A DNA stretch of 64,000 nucleotides, taken from contig JACKLQ010000004.1 of NCBI GenBank assembly GCA_024235835.1, forward strand, positions 101,132-165,131. The letters are read 5' to 3'. Source of the DNA: Thiobacillus sp. GTDB lineage: Bacteria > Pseudomonadota > Gammaproteobacteria > Burkholderiales > Thiobacillaceae. The notes below the pieces were generated by a model that did not search any database, had not been told where the DNA came from, and saw only the letters and a list, made by a program, of their open reading frames with translations. The position numbers and the translations under genes were made by a program. Position 1 is the first letter of the stretch. Each line of letters begins with the position of its first letter. Of this stretch, positions 34,757-59,212 are shown in pieces.

Positions 34757-37435
34757 ATGAGCCATCATTATCTCCACCCCCTTCTGCACCCCCGCTCCGT
34801 GGCCGTTTTCGGCGCCAGCGACCGGGAGGACTCCGTGGCAGGGATCATCTTCCGCAACATGGTCACCTCCGGCTTCCGGGGCCAGGTGTTCCCCCTCAAC
34901 CCCAAGCGGGAAGAGGTGATGGGCCACAAGTGCTACCCCAACGCCACGGCCCTGCCGGAAACGCCGGAACTGGCCATCATCGCCACTCCCGCCACTTCCA
35001 TCCCCGGCATCCTGGAGGAGTGCGGCGCCCGGGGCATCAAGCACGCGGTGGTGCTGTCCGCCGGCTTCCGCGAGGTGGGCAAGGAGGGTGCCCTGCTGGA
35101 ACAGAAAGTGGCCCAGACCGCCAAGCGCCACGGTATCCGCTTCATCGGCCCCAATTGCCTGGGCATCCAGCGACCGGCCATCGGCCTGAACGCCACCTTC
35201 GCCCTGGGCACGGCCCTGCCCGGGGACCTGGCCCTGGTGTCCCAGTCCGGCGCCATCTGCACCGCCATGCTGGACTGGGCGGAATCCAACGGCATCGGCT
35301 TCTCCAGCGTCATCTCCACCGGGGCCTCGGCGGACCTGGACTTCGGCGAACTGCTGGACTACCTGGCCCACGACCCGGCCACCAAGGGCATCCTCATGTA
35401 CATCGAGGGCATCCGCGACGCCCGCCGCTTCATGAGCGCCCTGCGGGCCGTGTCCCGCATCAAGCCCGTGGTGATGGTGAAGGTGGGCCGCCAGGAGGCG
35501 GGCTCCAAGGCCGTGGCCTCCCACACCGGCGCCCTGGTGGGCTCCGACGCGGTGTTCGAGGCCTTGGTGCGCCGGGCCGGCGTGGTGCGGGTGACCACCA
35601 TCCTGCAACTCTTCGCCTGCGCCCGGGCCCTGGCCGCCCACATCCACCCCACCGGCAACCGCCTCACCATCCTCACCAACGGCGGCGGCCCCGGCGTCAT
35701 GGCCACGGACCGGGCGGTGGAACTGGGCATCCGCCTGGCGGAACTGGCGCCCCAGACCATGGAGCAGCTCAACGCCGCCCTGCCCGCCACCTGGTCCCAC
35801 GGCAACCCCGTGGACATCATCGGCGACGCGGGCGCGGAGCGTTACCGCGCCGCCCTCTCGGCCTGCCTGGCGGACCCGGGCGTGGACGGGGTACTGGCCA
35901 TGCTCACGCCCCAGGCCATGACCAAGCCCACCGAGGCCGCCCAGGCGGTGGTGGACGTGGCCAAGGGCTCCAGCAAGCCGGTGCTCACCTGCTGGATGGG
36001 CGAAAGCCAGGTGGCGGAAGGCCGCAAGCTGTTCAAGGAAGCGGGCCTGCCCTACTTCACCACCCCGGAGCCGGCGGTGGAAGTGTTCTCCTACCTGTCC
36101 GCCTTCTACGAGAACCAGCGCCTGCTCATGCAGACCCCGGGCCCTCTCTCCCACCAGGAACCGCCTGACGTGGACGGGGCGCGCATGATCGTGGAGAACG
36201 CCCTGTCCCAGGGCCGGCACCTGCTCAACGAGGTGGAATCCAAGGCCCTGCTTTCCGCCTTCCACATCGCCGTGGCCCAGACCAGCATCGCCCGGGACGC
36301 CACCGAGGCCATGCTCATGTCCCAGCAGATCGGCTACCCGGTGGCCATGAAGATCAACTCCCAGCAGGTGAGCCACAAGTCCGACGTGGGCGGCGTGCGC
36401 CTGGGCCTGTCCAACGGACAGGCGGTGCGGGCCGCCTATTCCGGCATGATGGCCGAGGTGCACAAGCACGTGCCCGACGCGGTGCTGGACGGCGTGGTGA
36501 TCGAGCCCATGGTGACCCGTCCCAACGCCAGGGAAGTGCTGGTGGGCGTGGTGACGGACCCGGTGCTGGGCCCAGTCATCGCCTTCGGAGCCGGCGGAGT
36601 GGACGTGGAAGCCTTCCAGGACCGGGCCGTGTCGCTGCCTCCCCTGAACCGATACCTGGCCGACGACCTGATCAAGCGCACCCGGGTGTCCAAGCTGCTG
36701 GGCGAGTTCCGCAAGCGCCCCTCCGCCGACTTCACGGCGGTGGAGCAGGTGCTGCTGCGGGTGTCGGAGATGGTGTGCGAACTGCCCTGGATCGCGGAAC
36801 TGGACATCAACCCCCTGCTGGTGGACGAGCATGGCGCCCTGGCCGCCGACGCCCGCATCGTCATCGCCGCCCGGACCCATGGCGCGGATCGCTATGGCCA
36901 CATGGCCATCCACCCCTACCCCGCTCATCTGGTGAGCCAGTGGCAACTGCCCAACGGCATGGACGTGGTGATCCGCCCCATCCGCCCGGAGGACGCGGAG
37001 ATGACCCAGGAGTTCGTGCGGGGCCTGTCGGCGGAGACCAAGTACTTCCGCTACATGGACGCCGTGCAGGAGTTGTCTCCCAGCATGCTGGCCCGCCTGA
37101 CCCAGATCGACTATGACCGGGAAATGGCCCTGCTCATGGTGACCCAGATCGACGGCAAGGACGTGGAAATGGGCGTGGCACGCTATGCCGTGGACTCCAC
37201 CCTGGTCAACGCCGAGTTTGCCCTGGTGGTGGACGATCGCTGGCAGCACCAGGGCATCGGCCACAAGCTCATGAACGTGCTCATGGACGTGGCCCGGGCC
37301 AAGGGCGTGAGGGATTTCGAGGGCGAGGTGCTGAAGACCAACCGCAAGATGCTGCACCTGGTGGAGGGCCTGGGCTTCCGCATCGAGCCCCACCCGGACG
37401 ACACCGACATCAAGTGGGTGACGCGCACACTCTGA
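34757..37435 (+). CDS. Pat/YfiQ-type protein lysine acetyltransferase (ADP-forming acyl-CoA synthetase-like domains + C-terminal GNAT)
   Basis: 892 aa with an N-terminal CoA-binding/succinyl-CoA-synthetase-like region and an ATP-grasp segment. The C-terminal GNAT carries WQHQGIGHKLM. Confidence 0.88.
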   Translation: MSHHYLHPLLHPRSVAVFGASDREDSVAGIIFRNMVTSGFRGQVFPLNPKREEVMGHKCYPNATALPETPELAIIATPATSIPGILEECGARGIKHAVVLSAGFREVGKEGALLEQKVAQTAKRHGIRFIGPNCLGIQRPAIGLNATFALGTALPGDLALVSQSGAICTAMLDWAESNGIGFSSVISTGASADLDFGELLDYLAHDPATKGILMYIEGIRDARRFMSALRAVSRIKPVVMVKVGRQEAGSKAVASHTGALVGSDAVFEALVRRAGVVRVTTILQLFACARALAAHIHPTGNRLTILTNGGGPGVMATDRAVELGIRLAELAPQTMEQLNAALPATWSHGNPVDIIGDAGAERYRAALSACLADPGVDGVLAMLTPQAMTKPTEAAQAVVDVAKGSSKPVLTCWMGESQVAEGRKLFKEAGLPYFTTPEPAVEVFSYLSAFYENQRLLMQTPGPLSHQEPPDVDGARMIVENALSQGRHLLNEVESKALLSAFHIAVAQTSIARDATEAMLMSQQIGYPVAMKINSQQVSHKSDVGGVRLGLSNGQAVRAAYSGMMAEVHKHVPDAVLDGVVIEPMVTRPNAREVLVGVVTDPVLGPVIAFGAGGVDVEAFQDRAVSLPPLNRYLADDLIKRTRVSKLLGEFRKRPSADFTAVEQVLLRVSEMVCELPWIAELDINPLLVDEHGALAADARIVIAARTHGADRYGHMAIHPYPAHLVSQWQLPNGMDVVIRPIRPEDAEMTQEFVRGLSAETKYFRYMDAVQELSPSMLARLTQIDYDREMALLMVTQIDGKDVEMGVARYAVDSTLVNAEFALVVDDRWQHQGIGHKLMNVLMDVARAKGVRDFEGEVLKTNRKMLHLVEGLGFRIEPHPDDTDIKWVTRTL

Positions 37436-42193: not shown

Positions 42194-42220
42194 AAAAGCC
42201 GACAAAATTTGTCGGCTTTT
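42194..42220. terminator. Bidirectional-looking intrinsic terminator between dsrP and dsrN
   Basis: AAAAGCCGACAAA/TTTGTCGGCTTTT palindrome flanked by A/T runs in an AT-rich 73-bp spacer. Confidence 0.7.
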
Positions 42221-51929: not shown

Positions 51930-53231
51930 TTAGGCCGCGGCCTGCTTGCGCTCGAACCACTTCTCGGCCTCCTCGTCCCAGCCGTCGGTGCGGACGTAGG
52001 GGTTGGTGCGGGGATGGATGACCATGTTGGGATCCACTTCCAGGTCCAGACCCTCGAGGAAGTTCACCAGACCGATGCGCTCGATCATCTCGCCGGTGCG
52101 CTCGTGCTCAAGAGCGTTCTCGGCGAAGAAGTCCAGGATGTTCCGGGACAGTTCGTTCAGTTTCTCGAAGTCCTCGTCAGACTCCAACTTCATGAACGGG
52201 ATGATCACGGTGCCCATGGTGGCACCAATCTTCAGCACGCTCTTGCCCCCCACCAGGATGGTGACACCCTTGTCCTTGCCGGGCAGCAGGGCGCCGGGCA
52301 TGACGTTCAGGCAGTGCATGCAACGCACGCAGTTGTGGTTGTCGATCTCCAGACAGTTGGCGTCGGACACGGCCACCTTGGTGATGCCTTCGCCAGCGGC
52401 AGCGCCGTCGTTCTTCACCAAGCGGATGGCACGGGTGGGGCACATGCTCACGACCATGTTGGTCAGGTCTTCCATGCTGTGGGCGGCCATCCAGTCGCGG
52501 GCCATTTTCTCGTCGGCCCGCATGTTGTCGCGCCAGGTGCCGATGGTGGCCATGTCAGAACGCTGGATGGAGTTCACGCAGTCGTTGGGACAGCCGGAGA
52601 ACTTGAACTTGAACTTGTAGGGCAGGGAGGGGCGGTGCATGTCATCAATGTTGTTGTTGATGACAACGCGCAGTGCACGAGCCTCATCGAAGCAGGACAT
52701 TTCGCAACGGGCGGAGCCCACGCAGGACATGGAGGTACGCAGGGCGGGGCCTGCACCACCCAGATCGAAGCCCATCTCGTTGAACTTGTCGAAGGCCTTC
52801 TGCACGTTCTCGGTCTTGATGCCCTGGAACATGATGTCGCCGGACTGGCCGTGAAACGCGATCAGCCCTGAACCACCGGTCTCGAGCCAGCCATCGCACA
52901 GCTGACGCAACAGGTCAGATGTGTAGTGCATGCCGGCGGGAGGAATGATGCGCAGGGTGTGGAACTCGGCGGCTTCGGGAAAGAGGGGCTTGTGGTTCTC
53001 ATCCTTGAGTTCGGTGAAGCGGGGAATAATGCCGCCACCATAGCCCACCACACCAACAGTGCCACCCTTCCAGTAACCGAATCGGGTGTTATAGGAAGTT
53101 TCCAGTTGACCCATCAGGTCAACCATCATGTCATTGTCTTTCGCCAGGCGCTTCAGACCAGTGACGAAGGAAGGCCAAGGGCCCTTCTCCAGATCGTCCA
53201 GGTTGGGCGTGTCGTGCATCTGCTTAGCCAT
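51930..53231 (-). CDS. dsrA: Reverse-type dissimilatory sulfite reductase alpha subunit
   Basis: CVGSARCEMSC ... GCPNDCV siroheme-FeS motif and ferredoxin insert CPTRAI...CVRCMHCLNVMP. AAGGAGA before the ATG at 53231. The oxidative type is inferred from the linked dsrEFH and dsrL. Confidence 0.93.
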   Translation of the reverse strand: MAKQMHDTPNLDDLEKGPWPSFVTGLKRLAKDNDMMVDLMGQLETSYNTRFGYWKGGTVGVVGYGGGIIPRFTELKDENHKPLFPEAAEFHTLRIIPPAGMHYTSDLLRQLCDGWLETGGSGLIAFHGQSGDIMFQGIKTENVQKAFDKFNEMGFDLGGAGPALRTSMSCVGSARCEMSCFDEARALRVVINNNIDDMHRPSLPYKFKFKFSGCPNDCVNSIQRSDMATIGTWRDNMRADEKMARDWMAAHSMEDLTNMVVSMCPTRAIRLVKNDGAAAGEGITKVAVSDANCLEIDNHNCVRCMHCLNVMPGALLPGKDKGVTILVGGKSVLKIGATMGTVIIPFMKLESDEDFEKLNELSRNILDFFAENALEHERTGEMIERIGLVNFLEGLDLEVDPNMVIHPRTNPYVRTDGWDEEAEKWFERKQAAA

Positions 53232-53391
53232 CTGTGTTTCTCCTTGAAGTCTCGAACACGGTGTCGTCACATCCAAACACTTTCCGGCGGCCACTCAGCC
53301 GATTCGGAATACGTGCCAGCATATTAGGGAGCGCTTATCCACGCCACCATCATTCCGATGGAGTAAGTGGGTCTTTCACTCGGGTAATCCC

Positions 53392-53413
53392 CACCTACCC
53401 GAACGGGTAGGTG
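53392..53413. promoter_or_regulatory. Perfect 22-bp palindrome CACCTACCCG-AA-CGGGTAGGTG in the dsrA-divergent promoter region
   Basis: Read directly. It lies 161-182 bp upstream of the dsrA ATG and 79-100 bp upstream of the 53492 ORF. Its right arm overlaps a possible -35 GTGACA for the plus-strand operon. Confidence 0.5.
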
Positions 53414-53491
53414 ACACATCCCCATGCCGGGCATACCTATACCTGAGCAAAAATGTCAGATAATAGGCATATCAACACATACTGATACATT

Positions 53492-53734
53492 ATGGACCTA
53501 CACACTTCAATCGCGAAATTCAGAAATCCTTATGGCAATCAGGAAATCGAATTGCAGGAGGTCCGCTTCGAGGCAGGTGGTACGCCCATGATGCGCCTGC
53601 GGATACGAGAGAGGGGCGCCCGCTTCACCATATTCGACATCGATCCCGTGACCGCCAAATATTGGGCGGACGAGATGCTCAAGTGGGCCACCCCTTTGGC
53701 CTGTCAAACACAGTCAACCGAGCCCGGAGCCTGA
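53492..53734 (+). CDS. Hypothetical 80-aa protein
   Basis: First ORF divergent from dsrA, 3 nt before the Cas6-like gene. No motif recognised. Confidence 0.6.
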   Translation: MDLHTSIAKFRNPYGNQEIELQEVRFEAGGTPMMRLRIRERGARFTIFDIDPVTAKYWADEMLKWATPLACQTQSTEPGA

Positions 53735-53737
53735 CCC

Positions 53738-54388
53738 ATGCGCCTTTTCAGCCCCGAATGGGAGGCCATAAAAGAATTCCAGCACACCGCCAGCGTGCGT
53801 GATGTCCAGTTCGATCTCATGGGCCAGGAACTGCCTGAGGATCACGGCCATATTTTATATGAGACCCTGCTGGTCCACCTGCCTTGGCTGAAGGACATAC
53901 CCGAAGCCGGCATTCACGCCATACATGGCGCCCCTTCCGGTCGAGGCACCCTGATCATCAACCGCCGCGCGAAGCTGGTTCTGCGCCTTCCCATTCTCCG
54001 CCTTGCGGATGCCCGGGTGCTTGTGGATAAGGTCATTGACCTGGGCTGTGGCGTCATCCATATCGGGGGCTTGAAAGAAAAACCCCTGATGCCATTTAAC
54101 TACTTGTATTCCCCCTTGGTGGACATGGGCACGACGGATGAAGCCGTGTTCTTGGCTAGGGTCAGGACCAGCCTGGATGAATTGGGCGTGCAGGGAGGAC
54201 TGATCCCAGGCAAGCAACGTAAAATGCATACCTCGGATGGGGACATCGGCGGCTACAGCCTGATGCTGCATGACGTCACCCTGGCCCATTCCATCACCGT
54301 TCAGGAGAAGGGAATAGGCAGGAACCACTTGATGGGCTGCGGTATTTTCGTGGCGCACAAATCGATCAAGGAAGTAGCGGAGGGCTGA
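53738..54388 (+). CDS. Cas6/Cmx6-like RAMP-superfamily protein (orphan, no CRISPR context)
   Basis: VQFDLMGQELPEDHGHILYETLL...GIHAIHG resembles the Cmx6-type Cas6 N-terminus as I remember it. The C-terminal GIGRNHLMGCGIF fits the RAMP glycine loop G-h-G-x5-G-h-G. That it is a gene is likely; the family call is from memory. Confidence 0.6.
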   Translation: MRLFSPEWEAIKEFQHTASVRDVQFDLMGQELPEDHGHILYETLLVHLPWLKDIPEAGIHAIHGAPSGRGTLIINRRAKLVLRLPILRLADARVLVDKVIDLGCGVIHIGGLKEKPLMPFNYLYSPLVDMGTTDEAVFLARVRTSLDELGVQGGLIPGKQRKMHTSDGDIGGYSLMLHDVTLAHSITVQEKGIGRNHLMGCGIFVAHKSIKEVAEG

Positions 54389-54448
54389 GCGATCGACCCC
54401 ACGCGTTTGTTATCAACTTGTCTCTTAACTCGTGCAAAGGAGAAAACA

Positions 54449-54781
54449 ATGGGATACATCGTTAACGGCGAAGAACTGGAAACCGACGAAGAAGGCTTCC
54501 TGACCGAGGCCAATTTCAGTGACGACGTGGTGCCGGTCATCGCCGAGTCCGAAAAGATCGCCCTGACCGACCAGCATTGGCAAGTCGTGAAGTTCATGCG
54601 TGAGCGCTATCAGGAAGACGGGCATACCCCCAACTTCCGCAACATGGTGGCCATGCTGACGGACGAGGATGACAGCGTGGACTGGAAGAAAGTCCTGTAT
54701 GAACTCTTCCCCCTGCAGCCCAACCGCCAGTCCGCCAAGGTGGCCGGCCTGCCCAAGCCCTTCGGCAAGGGCGGCTACTAA
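54449..54781 (+). CDS. DsrC/TusE-family protein lacking both arm cysteines
   Basis: Aligns with DsrC along its length (EEGFL...WQVVKFMRERYQEDG...LYELFP...GLPKP). The arm reads QSAKVAGLPKPFGKGGY, whereas DsrC reads QACKIGGLPKPTGCI. AAGGAG RBS. Confidence 0.85.
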   Translation: MGYIVNGEELETDEEGFLTEANFSDDVVPVIAESEKIALTDQHWQVVKFMRERYQEDGHTPNFRNMVAMLTDEDDSVDWKKVLYELFPLQPNRQSAKVAGLPKPFGKGGY

Positions 54782-54849
54782 GCCTTGAGTTGAGAGCCGA
54801 GCGCCGGGGCAAGCCCTGGCGCTCCACTCTCCACTCCGGCTCCACCGAC

Positions 54850-55698
54850 ATGTTTTCCAATACCCTCGTTTCCACCGAAGACCTGGCCAAGCATCTGGAC
54901 GATCCCAACTGGATCGTGTTCGACTGCCGCTTTACCCTCACCGACCCGGAAGGCGGACGCCGGCTGTACGAGAAGAACCACATCCCCGGTGCCCGCTACG
55001 CCCACCTGGATGATGACCTCTCCGCCCCCATCACGGACGCCACGGGCCGCCATCCCCTCCCCTCCCCGGAAGCCTTCGCGGAAAAGGTCTGCGGCTGGGG
55101 CGTGGGCGTCAACAAGCAGGTGGTGGTGTACGACGACAGCTTCGGCGCCATGGCCGTGCGCATGTGGTGGATGCTGCGCTGGCTGGGCCACCCGGGCGTG
55201 GCCCTGCTGGACGGCGGCTTTCCCAAGTGGCAGCGGGAACAGCGCCCTCTGACCACCGTGGTGCCGGAAACCCGCAAGGGCAGTTGCGCCTGCCTGCCGG
55301 AGCACTCCCAGATCGTGAACGCCGATGACGTCCTGCGGGCCAGCCAGACGGGTGACGCCCTCATCATCGATGCCCGCCCGGAACGCCGCTTCACCGGCGA
55401 GTACGAACCCCTGGACCTGGTGGCAGGCCACATCCCCGGCTCCATCAACTGGTCCTTCGAGGAAAATCTGGACATCGACGGCACTCTCCTGCCGCCCGAG
55501 GCCCTGCGGGAGAACTACCAGGCCCTGCTGAAAGGGCGCGCGCCATGGCAGGTTATCCATTCCTGCGGCTCCGGCGTCACTGCCTGCCACAACCTGCTGG
55601 CCATGGAGGTGGCTGGACTGCCCGGGTCCCGCCTCTATCCGGGTTCCTGGAGCGAATGGATACGCGATCCCTCCCGTCCGGTGGCCACCGGCGAATAA
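54850..55698 (+). CDS. Tandem-rhodanese sulfurtransferase (SseA/3-mercaptopyruvate-thiosulfate type)
   Basis: Two rhodanese modules with the active-site loop CGSGVTAC in the second. Start trimmed to MFSNTLVSTEDL. Confidence 0.88.
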   Translation: MFSNTLVSTEDLAKHLDDPNWIVFDCRFTLTDPEGGRRLYEKNHIPGARYAHLDDDLSAPITDATGRHPLPSPEAFAEKVCGWGVGVNKQVVVYDDSFGAMAVRMWWMLRWLGHPGVALLDGGFPKWQREQRPLTTVVPETRKGSCACLPEHSQIVNADDVLRASQTGDALIIDARPERRFTGEYEPLDLVAGHIPGSINWSFEENLDIDGTLLPPEALRENYQALLKGRAPWQVIHSCGSGVTACHNLLAMEVAGLPGSRLYPGSWSEWIRDPSRPVATGE

Positions 55699-55718
55699 GG
55701 AAAGAACAAGGAGCGCCC

Positions 55719-56315
55719 ATGGTCAAACCCGTACGCGTACGCACATCCTGGTTCAAGCAGGAAGGTGAGCGACCCAGCCATGAGGTGGCCTCGGTGCTGG
55801 CTTCCACCGTATGGCGCCTGGCAGACAAGGCCGTGGAAAACCTGTCCAAGGCCGACTACGACATCGTTACGCCCCAGCGGGGCTTCCGCATCATCGGCGA
55901 ACTGGCCTGCTTCCTGGTCCACTATGGGGACCGCCTGGTGTACGGCCGGGTGACAGAGGAAAAACGGGCGGAAATCGTTACTGCCATTGCGCTGCGCGTG
56001 GCCGAGATCATGGAAGACAACATCCTGGACTTCACCGGTGGACAGAAAGACCCGGAATACGACTACAAGCAGGGCTTCATCGACCTGCTCAACACCCGCA
56101 TGGCGGACTACTCCGTATTTGAATTCCCTGTAGATAAGGCCAGCTTCCAGGCCCTGCGCTTTCTCTCTCTGCAAATCCGGGACGTGATGGAAGACAGCGA
56201 CAAGAGCTGGATCCAGGATCAACTCATGGACATCGAAGTCCCCGAGATGATGGGTACCGTGAAGAAGAGCGTGGACGGTTTCTACCCCCCTGCCCCTGCC
56301 GTGGACGCCCAATAG
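55719..56315 (+). CDS. Hypothetical 198-aa cytoplasmic protein
   Basis: AAGGAG RBS before the ATG at 55719. It is tightly spaced between the rhodanese and TauD-like genes. No family recognised. Confidence 0.65.
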   Translation: MVKPVRVRTSWFKQEGERPSHEVASVLASTVWRLADKAVENLSKADYDIVTPQRGFRIIGELACFLVHYGDRLVYGRVTEEKRAEIVTAIALRVAEIMEDNILDFTGGQKDPEYDYKQGFIDLLNTRMADYSVFEFPVDKASFQALRFLSLQIRDVMEDSDKSWIQDQLMDIEVPEMMGTVKKSVDGFYPPAPAVDAQ

Positions 56316-56329
56316 CCCCGGCGAACACC

Positions 56330-57259
56330 ATGATTCCAGCAGACAGCCCCTTCCACCCGGACAACGGAGAGGCATACGCCTCCTGGCGCGCTGCCAAGCT
56401 GGCTCACTATCCCACCGACCCATCCGACCTGGTGGTGCACGTGGCCGATCCTGCTCGCCTCAGCGACTCGGAATACGAGGCCCTCTGGCGATGCATCGCC
56501 AAAACCAACATGGTGGTGTACGCCACCCCCGACGGCGAAAAGGAGGACAAGTCCATCCCGCGCCTGATCGCCGAGCAGTTCGGCCTGTCCCACCTTGACG
56601 CCAACTGGCTCTCCGACGAGGACGGCATATCCAGCCTGACCCCACGGGACGATGGCACCAGCGAAGTGATGGAACGCAAGCCCGGCACGGATCCGGGCAA
56701 GCGGGGCGACTACATCCCCTACACCCACCACCGCATCCGCTGGCACACGGACGGCTACTACAACCCGCCGGAGCGGCGCATCTACGCCATGGGGCTCCAT
56801 TGCGTGCGCCAGGCGGACGCGGGGGGCGAGAACGATCTTTACGACCACGAACTGGCCTTCATCGCCCTGCGGGACGCGAACCCGGATCACATCCGCGCCC
56901 TCATGGCCGAGGACGCCATGACCATCCCCGCCCGGGTGGATGACATGGGCGTAGCCCGGGGCGATGAAACAGGGCCCGCAATGTTGGTGGACAGAGGCCA
57001 GTTGCACCTGCGTTATACCGCCCGCACCAAGAGCATCGGCTGGAAACAGGATACCGACACCCAGGCAGCCCTGGCCGCCTTGGAGGACCTGCTGGGCAGC
57101 AAGCCTTTCGGGGCCTATACCCTGAGGCTGGAACCGGGCATGGGGGTGCTGTGCAACAACGTGCTACATACCCGGGCGGGTTTCAGCGACCGGCCGGAAC
57201 ACCGGCGTCTGCTCTACCGCGCCCGCTACCACGACCACCTGCGCAACCTGCGCGGCTAG
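56330..57259 (+). CDS. TauD/TfdA-family Fe(II)/2-oxoglutarate-dependent dioxygenase-like protein
   Basis: HTDGYY (H-x-D) and a distal His in NNVLHTRAGF with a following Arg. The size fits the family. Confidence 0.7.
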   Translation: MIPADSPFHPDNGEAYASWRAAKLAHYPTDPSDLVVHVADPARLSDSEYEALWRCIAKTNMVVYATPDGEKEDKSIPRLIAEQFGLSHLDANWLSDEDGISSLTPRDDGTSEVMERKPGTDPGKRGDYIPYTHHRIRWHTDGYYNPPERRIYAMGLHCVRQADAGGENDLYDHELAFIALRDANPDHIRALMAEDAMTIPARVDDMGVARGDETGPAMLVDRGQLHLRYTARTKSIGWKQDTDTQAALAALEDLLGSKPFGAYTLRLEPGMGVLCNNVLHTRAGFSDRPEHRRLLYRARYHDHLRNLRG

Positions 57260-57269
57260 GCTTTCCTGT

Positions 57270-57953
57270 TCAGTTCCGCTTGCCGTCCAGGCCGGGGCTG
57301 AGCCTGTGCTCCACTGCAAACACCGCCGCCTCCACCCGGGATGACAGGTTCAACTTGGCCAGGATGTGGCGCACGTGGAGCTTCACCGTGTCGTAGCTGA
57401 TGTCCAGCTGGCGGGCGATGGCCTTGTTGCTCTCGCCCCGGGCCAGATGGGTGAGGATCTCCCGCTCCCGTTGGGTCAGGGTCTCCAGCAGGGGCACATC
57501 GCTGTTGCCCTTGTTGTCCAGTAGTTTCACCAGTTTCGCGGTCATGGCGGGGGCCACCACGGTTTCGCCCCTGGCCGCCCGGGCGATGGCGTCCAGCACC
57601 TCGTCCGGCTCCATGCTCTTGAGGAGATAGCCGTTGGCGCCGGAGCGCAGGGCCCGGGCCATGTCCTCTTCCGCCTCGCTCACGGTGAGCATCAGCACGG
57701 GCAGGGTGAACCCCTCGCCCCGCAGTTCCTGCATCACGTTGATGCCGTCCGTCCCTCCCAGATTCAGGTCCAGCAACAGCACATCCGGCCTGTGCTGGCG
57801 CAGCAGGTCGGGCACTGCCTCGGGGTTTCCCGTGATGGCCGCCACGCTTACGGCACCTTCACGCTCCAGCAGCTCCGCCAGGCCCTTGCGGAACAGGGTA
57901 TGGTCATCCACCAGGACGATGTGGAGCACGGTGGACGGGGCGGCTATGGTCAT
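57270..57953 (-). CDS. NarL/FixJ-type response regulator (REC + LuxR HTH)
   Basis: VLVDDH...DVLLLDLNLGG receiver domain. C-terminal LTQREREILTHLARGESNKAIARQLDISYDTVKLHVRHILAKL. Confidence 0.92.
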   Translation of the reverse strand: MTIAAPSTVLHIVLVDDHTLFRKGLAELLEREGAVSVAAITGNPEAVPDLLRQHRPDVLLLDLNLGGTDGINVMQELRGEGFTLPVLMLTVSEAEEDMARALRSGANGYLLKSMEPDEVLDAIARAARGETVVAPAMTAKLVKLLDNKGNSDVPLLETLTQREREILTHLARGESNKAIARQLDISYDTVKLHVRHILAKLNLSSRVEAAVFAVEHRLSPGLDGKRN

Positions 57954-59212
57954 GACTTCTCTTCCACTGCATGGCGTGAGGGGAAGGTAAGACGCACTAT
58001 GGTGCCCCCCGCTGGCCGGCTCTCGATGGAAAGGCGACCGTTCAGCTTGGCGGCCCGTTCCCGCATGATGGTCAGGCCGAAGCTCTTGCCCATGTTGGAA
58101 GTGGCGTTCTGCTGCAGACCCACGCCGTCATCCGCCACGTTCACAACGTACTGGTCGTCCTGAAGGTCCAGGGTTACCACCACGTGACGGGCCCGGGCGT
58201 GCTTGCAGATGTTGTAGAGGGACTCCTGGATGATGTGGTAGACCTGAATCTCGTCTTCGGGGGCCAGCACCACGTCCTGGGCCACGTTCAGGAAGTCCAC
58301 ATCGGCATTGGCCTTCTTGCTGAAGCTCTCGGCCAGTTCCTGCAGGGCCGGCACCAGTCCCCGGGGGTCGATGCGATCCCTGAACTGGGTGATCAGGTTG
58401 CGCAGCTCCGAATAGGCCATGTCCACGGCCTCCTCCACGTCGCCCAGGTAGCGGTTGGCCTTGGCCTCGTCGCCATCCACCATGGCCTCGCTCAACACGG
58501 ACAGGCGCATCTTGGCGTAAGCCAGGGTCTGGGCCAGTGAATCGTGGATCTGGTTGGCCAGCATGGTGCGTTCGTTCATCAGGGAGATACGCATGTTCTC
58601 GCGGGTGAGTCGGCTGTTCTCCAGGGCCATGCCCAAGTGTTCGCTGATGGAGTTGAACAGGTAGCGGATGTCCTCCGGAAGGGGCTCCGGATTGTCCATG
58701 AACAGGTTGTAAACCCCCATTACCTTGCCCTTGTGGCGCATGGGCACGGCGTAGACCGTGCTGCAGTGCTGGGCGTAATACAGATGGCGCACCTGCTTCT
58801 GGCACACCTCCATGACGCCCTCAAAATGGGCGCTTTGCGTCAGAGTAGCCTTGCCGCAGATGCCACATTCCAGGGGGACGTAACGCTCCCGCTCCACCAG
58901 GGCGGGGGCAAGGCCGATGGAACCGGCCAGACGCAGATGGGCCCCATCGGCGGTGAGTACCCGCACTGCACCGGCCCTGGCTCCGGAGATGCGCACCATG
59001 ATCTCCAGGAAGCGCATGAGCATCTGTTCCGTGTTGGCATCGGAGTTCATGCTGCTGGCGATCTCCGCCAGCACCTCGATGACAGGAAGACGATCTCCCT
59101 CGGCTTGCATTCCACCGTCGGGGATGGACGTGCGGCTGATACTGGTGACAGGAATGTTTTGGACGTCCACGAACTGGCTCTGGTGGCTGTGGCGGGTGAG
59201 GCAATTCCACAT
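57950..59212 (-). CDS. Soluble GAF-domain sensor histidine kinase (HisKA_3/NarX-type transmitter)
   Basis: No TM segments. A GAF-like N-terminal half carries C-x2-C-x21-C-x13-C. H-box HDSLAQTLAY and an HATPase_c domain follow. It overlaps the regulator gene by ATGA. Confidence 0.85.
   Translation of the reverse strand: MWNCLTRHSHQSQFVDVQNIPVTSISRTSIPDGGMQAEGDRLPVIEVLAEIASSMNSDANTEQMLMRFLEIMVRISGARAGAVRVLTADGAHLRLAGSIGLAPALVERERYVPLECGICGKATLTQSAHFEGVMEVCQKQVRHLYYAQHCSTVYAVPMRHKGKVMGVYNLFMDNPEPLPEDIRYLFNSISEHLGMALENSRLTRENMRISLMNERTMLANQIHDSLAQTLAYAKMRLSVLSEAMVDGDEAKANRYLGDVEEAVDMAYSELRNLITQFRDRIDPRGLVPALQELAESFSKKANADVDFLNVAQDVVLAPEDEIQVYHIIQESLYNICKHARARHVVVTLDLQDDQYVVNVADDGVGLQQNATSNMGKSFGLTIMRERAAKLNGRLSIESRPAGGTIVRLTFPSRHAVEEKS

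Follow-up and report, generated by a model that had tools for sequence, protein, structure and literature searches.

In the 64,000-bp stretch of Thiobacillus sp. DNA analyzed here (contig JACKLQ010000004.1, positions 101,132–165,131; the whole stretch is hereafter called the window), six genes were found to form a cluster next to the genes of the reverse dissimilatory sulfite reductase (rDsr) pathway. They encode a DUF6967 protein, a homologue of the CRISPR-associated protein Cas6, a DsrC paralogue without its terminal cysteine, a tandem rhodanese, an all-alpha protein of 198 aa and a TauD-like dioxygenase. The cluster is, with high confidence, a genuine conserved functional module linked to dsrAB and not a part of a CRISPR system, and it is probably an undescribed helper or control unit of the sulfur-oxidation pathway. 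While the parts are known families, their combination and the CRISPR-independent Cas6 are new. The same gene set stands beside dsrA in all 80 of the best matching loci, and nothing describing it was found in the searchable literature, namely no mention of DUF6967, of the Thiobacillus denitrificans tags Tbd_2486–2491, of Cmx6 in a sulfur context or of solo or Cas6-like proteins linked to dsr, an earlier passing mention being possible.

Gene Content and Position of the Cluster

The six open reading frames (ORFs) lie on the plus strand and are separated by spacers of 3, 60, 68, 20 and 14 nt; the coordinates and spacers given in a preliminary description of this DNA, which was made from the sequence alone, were reproduced exactly. 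The starts of the third, fourth and fifth genes are ATG codons behind ribosome-binding sites. The closest database proteins originate from a Thiobacillus sp. metagenome-assembled genome. The minus strand encodes dsrABEFHCMKLJOPN and cysG, with dsrA as the first gene and the divergent partner of the cluster; the dsr genes downstream were identified using Pfam. This operon is complete and of the oxidative type, with dsrEFH and dsrL. The start of dsrA was read from the sequence, giving a divergent spacer of 260 bp with a GC content of ~50–52% against ~60–67% in the flanking genes. Both the size and the AT-richer composition previously ascribed to this region were thus borne out. The positions of all features are given in Table 1.

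Table 1. Features of the dsrA-linked cluster, its control region and the adjacent genes (positions in the window).
Feature	Position (bp)	Strand	Basis and remarks
dsrA	51930–53231	-	ORF and translation, start from sequence; first gene of the dsrABEFHCMKLJOPN-cysG operon
Shared control region, AT-richer, with several conserved blocks	53232–53491		Composition; alignments of 29 close and 28 distant loci
CATATTAG block (TAATAT on the dsrA strand), candidate dsrA -10 element (inferred)	53320–53327	-	Conserved in the close-clade alignment
Palindrome CCATC-ATTCC-GATGG, second candidate operator	53347–53361		Nearly invariant in the close and T. denitrificans clades
Heptamer array GGGTAA-N5-ACCTACCC-GAAC-GGGTAGGT, candidate DNA operator	53382–53413		Alternately oriented heptamers, conserved
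DUF6967 protein, 80 aa	53492–53734	+	Pfam PF22295, E 2e-27
Cas6/Cmx6 homologue, 216 aa	53738–54388	+	PF09559, E 2.8e-50; TIGR02807
DsrC-family paralogue without terminal cysteine, RspA-type	54449–54781	+	PF04358, E 8.7e-31
Strong stem-loop directly after the DsrC-like stop codon	54781–54841	+	Candidate internal terminator, attenuator or RNA-stability element
Tandem rhodanese, 3-mercaptopyruvate sulfurtransferase type (CGSGVTAC)	54850–55698	+	Two rhodanese domains by family scan
All-alpha protein, 198 aa (Unk198), no family assignment	55719–56315	+	Family scans, AlphaFold 2 model
TauD/TfdA-family Fe(II)/2-oxoglutarate dioxygenase (HTDGYY)	56330–57259	+	PF02668, E 1.1e-15
NarL/LuxR-type response regulator, REC and GerE domains	57270–57953	-	Pfam; convergent with the cluster, 10-nt gap
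Soluble histidine kinase, GAF, HisKA_3 and HATPase domains	57950–59212	-	Pfam

Conservation among Sulfur-Oxidizing Bacteria

An alignment of the Cas6-like protein was scanned against one genome per GTDB species. At least 592 loci matched; the best 80 were retrieved, and the window proteins were mapped onto them by tblastn. The dsrA gene is divergent from the Cas6 gene in all 75 loci that reach far enough. The DUF6967 gene is present in 79 of the 80 loci, directly upstream of the Cas6 gene and abutting it, and the DsrC-like gene in 78 of the 80. In loci of sufficient length, the gene of the 198-aa protein is never absent, the rhodanese gene is missing four times and the TauD-like gene, the most dispensable member, ten times. 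Among the carriers are Thiobacillus, Sulfuriferula, Sulfuricella, Sulfurimicrobium, Sulfurirhabdus, Parasulfuritortus, Tepidiphilus, Gallionellaceae and Rhodocyclaceae, and they include the cultured Thiobacillus denitrificans DSM 12475, Sulfuriferula multivorans and Parasulfuritortus cantonensis. A comparison of dsrA upstream regions across sulfur oxidizers, which had been suggested as a check, thus revealed an arrangement that is common to 80/80 of the best loci and is not unique to one strain, and the cluster stood up as a conserved unit tied to dsrAB.

Two kinds of rearrangement were found. In L049 (Rhodocyclaceae), in L031 and in L083, which is a metagenome contig, the rhodanese gives way to a protein of two TusA domains that is encoded between the Cas6 and DsrC-like genes; one persulfide carrier is here displaced by another. 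In the distant locus L085, TauD is followed by a 65-aa gene, a 236-aa gene, Cas6 and the DsrC-like gene, and a 198-aa homologue lies a few genes further; the reshuffled set has kept its divergent orientation to dsrA. For the 65-aa and 236-aa proteins of L085, homology to neither DUF6967 nor the 198-aa protein was supported. The rhodanese/TusA swap and the reshuffling in L085 argue for a functional unit rather than inherited adjacency, and the replacement by tandem TusA marks the sulfurtransferase as an integral part of the cluster. Some of the TusA variants also carry two tandem DsrC-family genes after the TusA-TusA gene (L083, 1628–2351; L076, 3622–4313).

Cas6 Homologue outside a CRISPR Locus

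The second protein of the cluster scored 171.4 bits with PF09559 (cut-off 26.7) and 144.7 bits with the Cas6/Cmx6 model TIGR02807 (equivalog cut-off 98.85), and every Cas6 model of PADLOC matched it. The clade profile matched the solved Cas6 of a type I-B CRISPR-associated transposon (PDB 8fcj, chain B) with an E-value of 1.1e-25 over residues 19–213. The preliminary description was therefore right about the family, but its wording of a 'Cas6-like' RAMP protein was too weak for a full-length Cas6/Cmx6 above the equivalog cut-off. Among 82 dsr-linked Cas6 sequences, G192, G194, G200, C201 and G202 of the glycine-rich loop (GxGxxxxxGxG) are invariant, as are F204, H207, R77 and R83. The full-length homology and this loop are shared with the Cas6/Cmx6 endoribonucleases that process CRISPR RNA. 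Unlike these enzymes, the homologue has a fixed place beside dsrA, a DUF6967 partner and no array or other cas gene detected nearby, and it possesses features of its own clade, namely a conserved N-terminal extension (EWEAIK) and a PHKS motif behind the glycine-rich loop, the latter not present in 8fcj_B.

It could be assumed that this is an ordinary CRISPR Cas6 which serves an array elsewhere in the genome and stands beside the dsr genes incidentally. The score above the TIGR02807 equivalog cut-off agrees with this, as does the name 'type I-MYXAN CRISPR-associated protein Cas6/Cmx6' that NCBI gives to the dsr-linked proteins (P0001, P0027, P0033, P0054, P0084, P0114, P0116 and others). Nevertheless, the explanation can practically be dismissed. 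The gene has the same place beside dsrA in 80/80 of the best loci across several families, and the protein has the N-terminal extension of its clade and an HKS motif that does not occur in the solved Cas6. Neither the window nor any of 90 related loci (1.23 Mb in total) contained a CRISPR array, the rest of the genomes being outside the scan. PADLOC matched none of the five other cluster proteins, and no other Cas family was present in the pre-computed Pfam lists of L083 and L085, a cas-gene scan of the flanks of the other loci not having been made. Given this genomic context, the NCBI name is probably misleading.

The 80-aa protein encoded before Cas6 is highly conserved (78% mean column identity). 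Called an unknown in the preliminary description, it is a member of DUF6967. Modeling using AlphaFold 2 led to a beta-beta-beta-beta-alpha fold with a mean confidence score (pLDDT) of 79.

DsrC-Like Paralogue

The third protein, described beforehand as a DsrC-like protein without cysteine, is indeed a member of PF04358 (107 bits) and its copy in the window contains no cysteine. With the genuine DsrC of the window it shares 39% identity. The AGLPKP motif of the C-terminal arm is kept, and the protein ends in GKGGY instead of the reactive Cys-Ile. The C-terminus [FY]GKGGY was found in 76/76 copies and RKGGY in the distant L085. The terminal cysteine is absent from all 76 copies, the second cysteine is absent from most, and 55 of the 76 have no cysteine at all. 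In functional DsrC, the penultimate cysteine is strictly conserved and a second cysteine is located ten residues upstream (PMC3397948). Because the terminal cysteine is absent, the paralogue cannot be a sulfur carrier of the DsrC or TusE type; with the TusE equivalog model NF008562 it scored 80.5 bits, below the cut-off of 191. Cysteine-less members of the DsrC/TusE family have been named RspA (PMC8477390), and the paralogue fits this group, with a putative regulatory role implied. Thus, it belongs to the DsrC/TusE/RspA family (TIGR03342) and retains the arm motif, but differs from DsrC and TusE in lacking the reactive terminal cysteine and in its C-terminus extended to the invariant GKGGY. 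A reading of the GGY tail as a thiocarboxylate carrier, similar to ThiS or MoaD, was considered and stays speculation: the cluster contains no adenylating enzyme and the fold is not a beta-grasp.

Sulfur carriage also bears on the explanation that the cluster is an RNA-modification pathway, in which the Cas6-like protein would recognize a tRNA or rRNA hairpin and the sulfurtransferase, the DsrC/TusE-like adaptor and the dioxygenase would thiolate or hydroxylate RNA, like TusA-TusBCD-TusE-MnmA. TusA or rhodanese, a TusE/DsrC-family protein and an RNA-binding fold do occur together here, and DsrEFH, a paralogue of TusBCD, is encoded across the divergent promoter. This explanation is nonetheless improbable. 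The DsrC-like protein is without the cysteine that TusE needs for sulfur carriage (PMC3397948), a thiolase or adenylating enzyme is missing, and the strict linkage to dsrA, together with the candidate operator in common, suggests a place in energy metabolism and not in housekeeping RNA modification.

Stem-Loop between Two Sub-Units

A stem-loop directly after the DsrC-like gene has a predicted free energy of -42.5 kcal/mol (z -5.9), and none of 200 shuffled sequences was equally stable. The spacer between the DsrC-like and rhodanese genes folds at -20 kcal/mol or stronger in 71 of 73 loci, with a median of -37 kcal/mol, or -0.45 kcal/mol per nt versus -0.13 for the spacer between the Cas6 and DsrC-like genes. 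The sequence of the stem-loop is not conserved among the loci. In the T. denitrificans clade, the GC stem stands between an A run and a T run and resembles an intrinsic terminator; the copy in the window has no T run. The rhodanese start is located within ~10 nt of the stem-loop, with no clear Shine-Dalgarno sequence.

These data qualify the earlier description of the six genes as one operon. The common strand, the short spacers and the conserved order agree with it, but a single six-gene transcript is doubtful because a stable stem-loop follows the DsrC-like gene in 71/73 loci. The cluster is best described as two sub-units, DUF6967-Cas6-DsrC-like and sulfurtransferase-Unk198-TauD, and the stem-loop is a candidate for a conserved terminator, attenuator or RNA-stability element between them.

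In nine loci (L004, L007, L010, L011, L015, L020, L022, L025 and L041), the arms of the stem-loop consist of 6–7 nt tandem repeats (e.g., GGTAGC, CTCACGC, GTGACGA). These tandem-repeat hairpins fold at -45 to -80 kcal/mol and are entirely different between close relatives. The stem-loop was also considered as a sequence-specific target of Cas6, which is unlikely with a sequence that differs wholly even between close relatives; a structure-specific interaction could still take place. No hairpins resembling the stem-loop or the control-region palindrome were found elsewhere in the dsr operon.

Sulfurtransferase, 198-aa Protein and TauD-Like Enzyme

The tandem rhodanese with the loop CGSGVTAC was confirmed: two domains were found and the loop was read in the translation. 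It agrees with CG[ST]GVTA, the active-site motif of 3-mercaptopyruvate sulfurtransferase (MST). With the MST equivalog model NF008557 the protein scored 162.2 bits, below the cut-off of 250. In Allochromatium vinosum, a cytoplasmic Rhd-TusA-DsrE2 relay feeds DsrEFH and DsrC (for context, see PMC8477390). A cytoplasmic sulfurtransferase of the rhodanese or TusA type is genetically tied to Dsr here too; the differences are that it is a tandem MST-type rhodanese or a tandem TusA, that DsrE2 is absent, and that its partners are Cas6, DUF6967, a cysteine-less DsrC paralogue, a helical protein and a dioxygenase.

The 198-aa protein had no match in Pfam, NCBIfam, PADLOC or PDB sequence searches. Its AlphaFold 2 model is a six-helix bundle (pLDDT 84) for which no significant structural match was found. 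A family profile search yielded 328 clusters at 50% identity, in which only R6 and E61 are invariant; no informative fusions were found among them. Some distant relatives adjoin flavoprotein-pirin-ThiF-ThiS-MoaE genes or a MobA-like gene (L088, 8001–11468; L090, 405–1600), neighborhoods that represent sulfur-carrier and molybdenum-cofactor contexts, and others adjoin LepA or a low-molecular-weight phosphatase.

The TauD-like enzyme belongs to PF02668 with 58.8 bits (cut-off 27), as had been proposed from its HTDGYY motif. Its HTD and a distal H align with the HxD...H iron ligands of TmpA and BBOX. The best named relatives, BBOX, TmpA and TMLH, matched with E-values of 1e-5 to 1e-6, far under their cut-offs. 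An organosulfur route, in which this enzyme would free sulfite or thiol from an organosulfonate or a carrier and the rhodanese would feed Dsr, could be derived from the TauD/TfdA membership, the aligned iron ligands and the position next to the sulfurtransferase. It is very unlikely: the gene is missing in ten loci of adequate length while the rest of the cluster persists, the named relatives are matched far under their cut-offs, and no transporter or sulfonate genes are present. The hint of organosulfonate or sulfite chemistry that the preliminary description had drawn from this gene was accordingly weakened, the resemblance to BBOX and TmpA being slight.

Shared Control Region and Adjacent Two-Component Pair

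Alignments of the control region of 29 close loci and of 28 loci of the T. denitrificans clade revealed several conserved blocks, including the ribosome-binding site of dsrA and the CATATTAG block, which was not called by a simple sigma-70 scan. The CCATC-ATTCC-GATGG palindrome sits between this candidate -10 element and the heptamer array. Inside the array, at 53,392–53,413, there is a perfect palindrome with 10-bp arms that occurs nowhere else in the window. The array of the distant clade is GGTAGGT-N4-ACCTACCC-AAAA-GGAGTAG, and a related palindrome, TATCCC-AAAC-GGGATAGGT, was found in the dsrA spacer of L085. The central half-site pairs perfectly with its right neighbor in the close clade and with its left neighbor in the T. 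denitrificans clade, and the spacing of the half-sites is about one helical turn.

The palindrome was also considered as an RNA hairpin for Cas6, and this was rejected. The half-sites are conserved and do not covary, and the pairing partner switches between clades. The loop ends are usually G and C, which would leave a loop of 2 nt, and the loop flips between GAAC and GTTC. In addition, the site is located upstream of both candidate -10 elements. Because of the half-site conservation, the G/C loop ends, the GAAC/GTTC flip and the helical-turn spacing, the array is better explained as a DNA operator, to which a dimeric or tetrameric regulator would bind, than as an RNA hairpin. In the predicted 5' leader of dsrA (53,232–53,330, minus strand), a small hairpin of the CCCGU...ACGGG type is conserved in position among 28 relatives, with weak consensus-fold support, and the leader contains a conserved GUGACGACA block.

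As previously described, the cluster ends convergent with a NarL-type regulator and a GAF histidine kinase. The GAF domain of the kinase contains four clustered cysteines (…ECGICGK…EVCQK…AQHC…). They recall Fe-S or thiol-based sensors such as NreB and could suit a sensor of redox state or persulfide. The NarL heptamers (TACYYMT) and the NreC site (TAGGG-N4-CCCTA) are similar in design to the array, and on account of this resemblance the adjacent REC-GerE regulator is inferred to be a candidate for its binding. The likeness to NreBC and NarL-type systems comprises a soluble sensor kinase with a cysteine cluster, a REC-GerE regulator and a 5-4-5 GC-rich palindrome (here, TACCC-N4-GGGTA) ahead of the putative target operons. 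The differences from NreBC are a GAF sensor domain instead of PAS, a different half-site sequence and the distribution of the pair, which is given below.

Two further elements were found within and behind the dsr operon. Between dsrP and dsrN, at 42,194–42,220, a perfect 13-bp hairpin with A and T runs on its sides (AAAAGCCGACAAA / TTTGTCGGCTTTT) is shaped like an intrinsic terminator that would act in both directions. About 1.4 kb past the cysG end of the operon, a gene on the plus strand (34,757–37,435) encodes a large protein in which ADP-forming acyl-CoA synthetase domains are joined to a GNAT acetyltransferase domain; it is similar to protein lysine acetyltransferases.

Proposed Function

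We tentatively propose an rDsr accessory cluster of beta-proteobacterial sulfur oxidizers that couples sulfur hand-over with nucleic-acid-based control. The first half would comprise DUF6967, a Cas6/Cmx6 homologue recruited away from CRISPR and the DsrC look-alike with its GKGGY end. The second half would comprise a persulfide-carrying sulfurtransferase (an MST-type tandem rhodanese or a tandem TusA), the all-helical protein and, optionally, the TauD-like dioxygenase. The sulfurtransferase would take up cytoplasmic sulfane sulfur bound for DsrEFH and DsrC, and the DsrC look-alike may dock, without reacting, on a partner of DsrC (DsrAB, DsrEFH or DsrK). The Cas6-DUF6967 pair would bind nucleic acid, most likely RNA from the dsr locus or its own transcript, and expression would in this way be tuned to sulfur supply. 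The cluster and dsrAB would be driven from one shared control region, with the heptamer array as the operator, probably for a NarL/NreC-type regulator such as the neighboring one. The proposal draws on the linkage to dsrA, the reshuffled set of L085, the sulfurtransferase swap, the Cas6 membership with its invariant residues, the lack of CRISPR arrays in the loci scanned, the topology of DUF6967, the GKGGY tail, the stem-loop, the operator-like array and the neighboring regulator and kinase. Gene content, families, conservation, linkage, the swap, the stem-loop and the array are observations, and each functional step is hypothetical.

A number of observations weigh against this proposal. The candidate catalytic His36 of Cas6, placed like the catalytic histidine of several Cas6 enzymes, is invariant in the close clade, but among the 82 sequences the residue is His 53 times, Asn 22 times and Ser 6 times, and a large part of the T. 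denitrificans clade has Asn or Ser; the solved 8fcj_B has N there. This lack of conservation, which also sets the family apart from the CRISPR RNA endoribonucleases, makes nuclease activity doubtful. RNA cleavage is thus uncertain, while the RNA-binding hallmarks, namely the glycine-rich loop and the arginines, are retained. Cas6 is also the fastest-evolving cluster member, with median identities of 57% (close clade) and 41% (distant clade) versus 66–93% and 52–88%, respectively, for the other proteins, and this could also mean relaxed constraint. Searches around the locus for the CRISPR-type 3' handle (ATTGAAAS) and Rfam families gave nothing relevant, and the control-region palindrome behaves like DNA and not RNA, so that no RNA partner of Cas6 was found among the handle motif, Rfam families and this palindrome. 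The best PDB fold matches of DUF6967, namely PUR-alpha repeats, a PC4 homologue and a Whirly protein, are non-significant (E ~0.5). These proteins bind single-stranded nucleic acid, and the likeness is a lead only. Distant relatives of the 198-aa protein occur in contexts unrelated to dsr, and only 8–9 of the 80 loci have the regulator/kinase pair at a distance of up to 8 kb.

The main rival explanation is built on proteins only: the DsrC look-alike, and perhaps Cas6 and DUF6967, would serve rDsrAB or the sulfur relay through docking, as chaperones or by allostery, and would have nothing to do with nucleic acids. It draws on the unconserved His36 and the lack of an RNA target in the handle and Rfam searches, as well as on the retained AGLPKP arm motif and the invariant GKGGY end of the DsrC-like protein. 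There is also a precedent in DsrD. For a long time this winged-helix protein was suspected of being a regulator, until it was recognized as an allosteric activator of DsrAB; since oxidative-type organisms do not have it, a different partner could find room there (PMC8794893). As with DsrD, a small protein with a putative nucleic-acid-binding fold is encoded with dsrAB in the cluster, and such folds can serve as DsrAB partners (PMC8794893). None of the six proteins is homologous to DsrD, and the cluster stands beside an oxidative-type dsr operon. Against a purely protein-based role, the glycine-rich loop and the invariant arginines of Cas6 are strictly kept, and the best fold resemblances of DUF6967 are to single-strand nucleic-acid binders. 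We consider this explanation unlikely.

Within the proposed coupling of sulfur hand-over and nucleic-acid-based control, a more specific assumption can be made. A Cas6 lineage that left CRISPR may have become, with DUF6967 and the cysteine-less DsrC paralogue, a dedicated RNA-level regulator or processing factor of dissimilatory sulfur oxidation that responds to the persulfide state of the associated sulfurtransferase. This assumption is speculative and on balance somewhat unlikely. If it is true, we know of no earlier example of a Cas6 that entered core energy metabolism.

Significance for Sulfur Oxidation and CRISPR Annotation

For CRISPR biology, the cluster provides a clean case of a Cas6 family member that is conserved outside any CRISPR locus. 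In several hundred genomes the public label 'type I-MYXAN Cas6/Cmx6' probably misleads, and with at least 592 loci the dsr-linked proteins may inflate the counts of cas genes in surveys of sulfur-oxidizer genomes. For the rDsr pathway, three questions are made testable: the control of the dsr genes, the route of sulfane sulfur to DsrEFH and DsrC in globule-free chemolithotrophs, and the role of the many cysteine-less DsrC paralogues. The cluster offers six candidate genes for these roles, which have a fixed place beside dsrAB across many genera.

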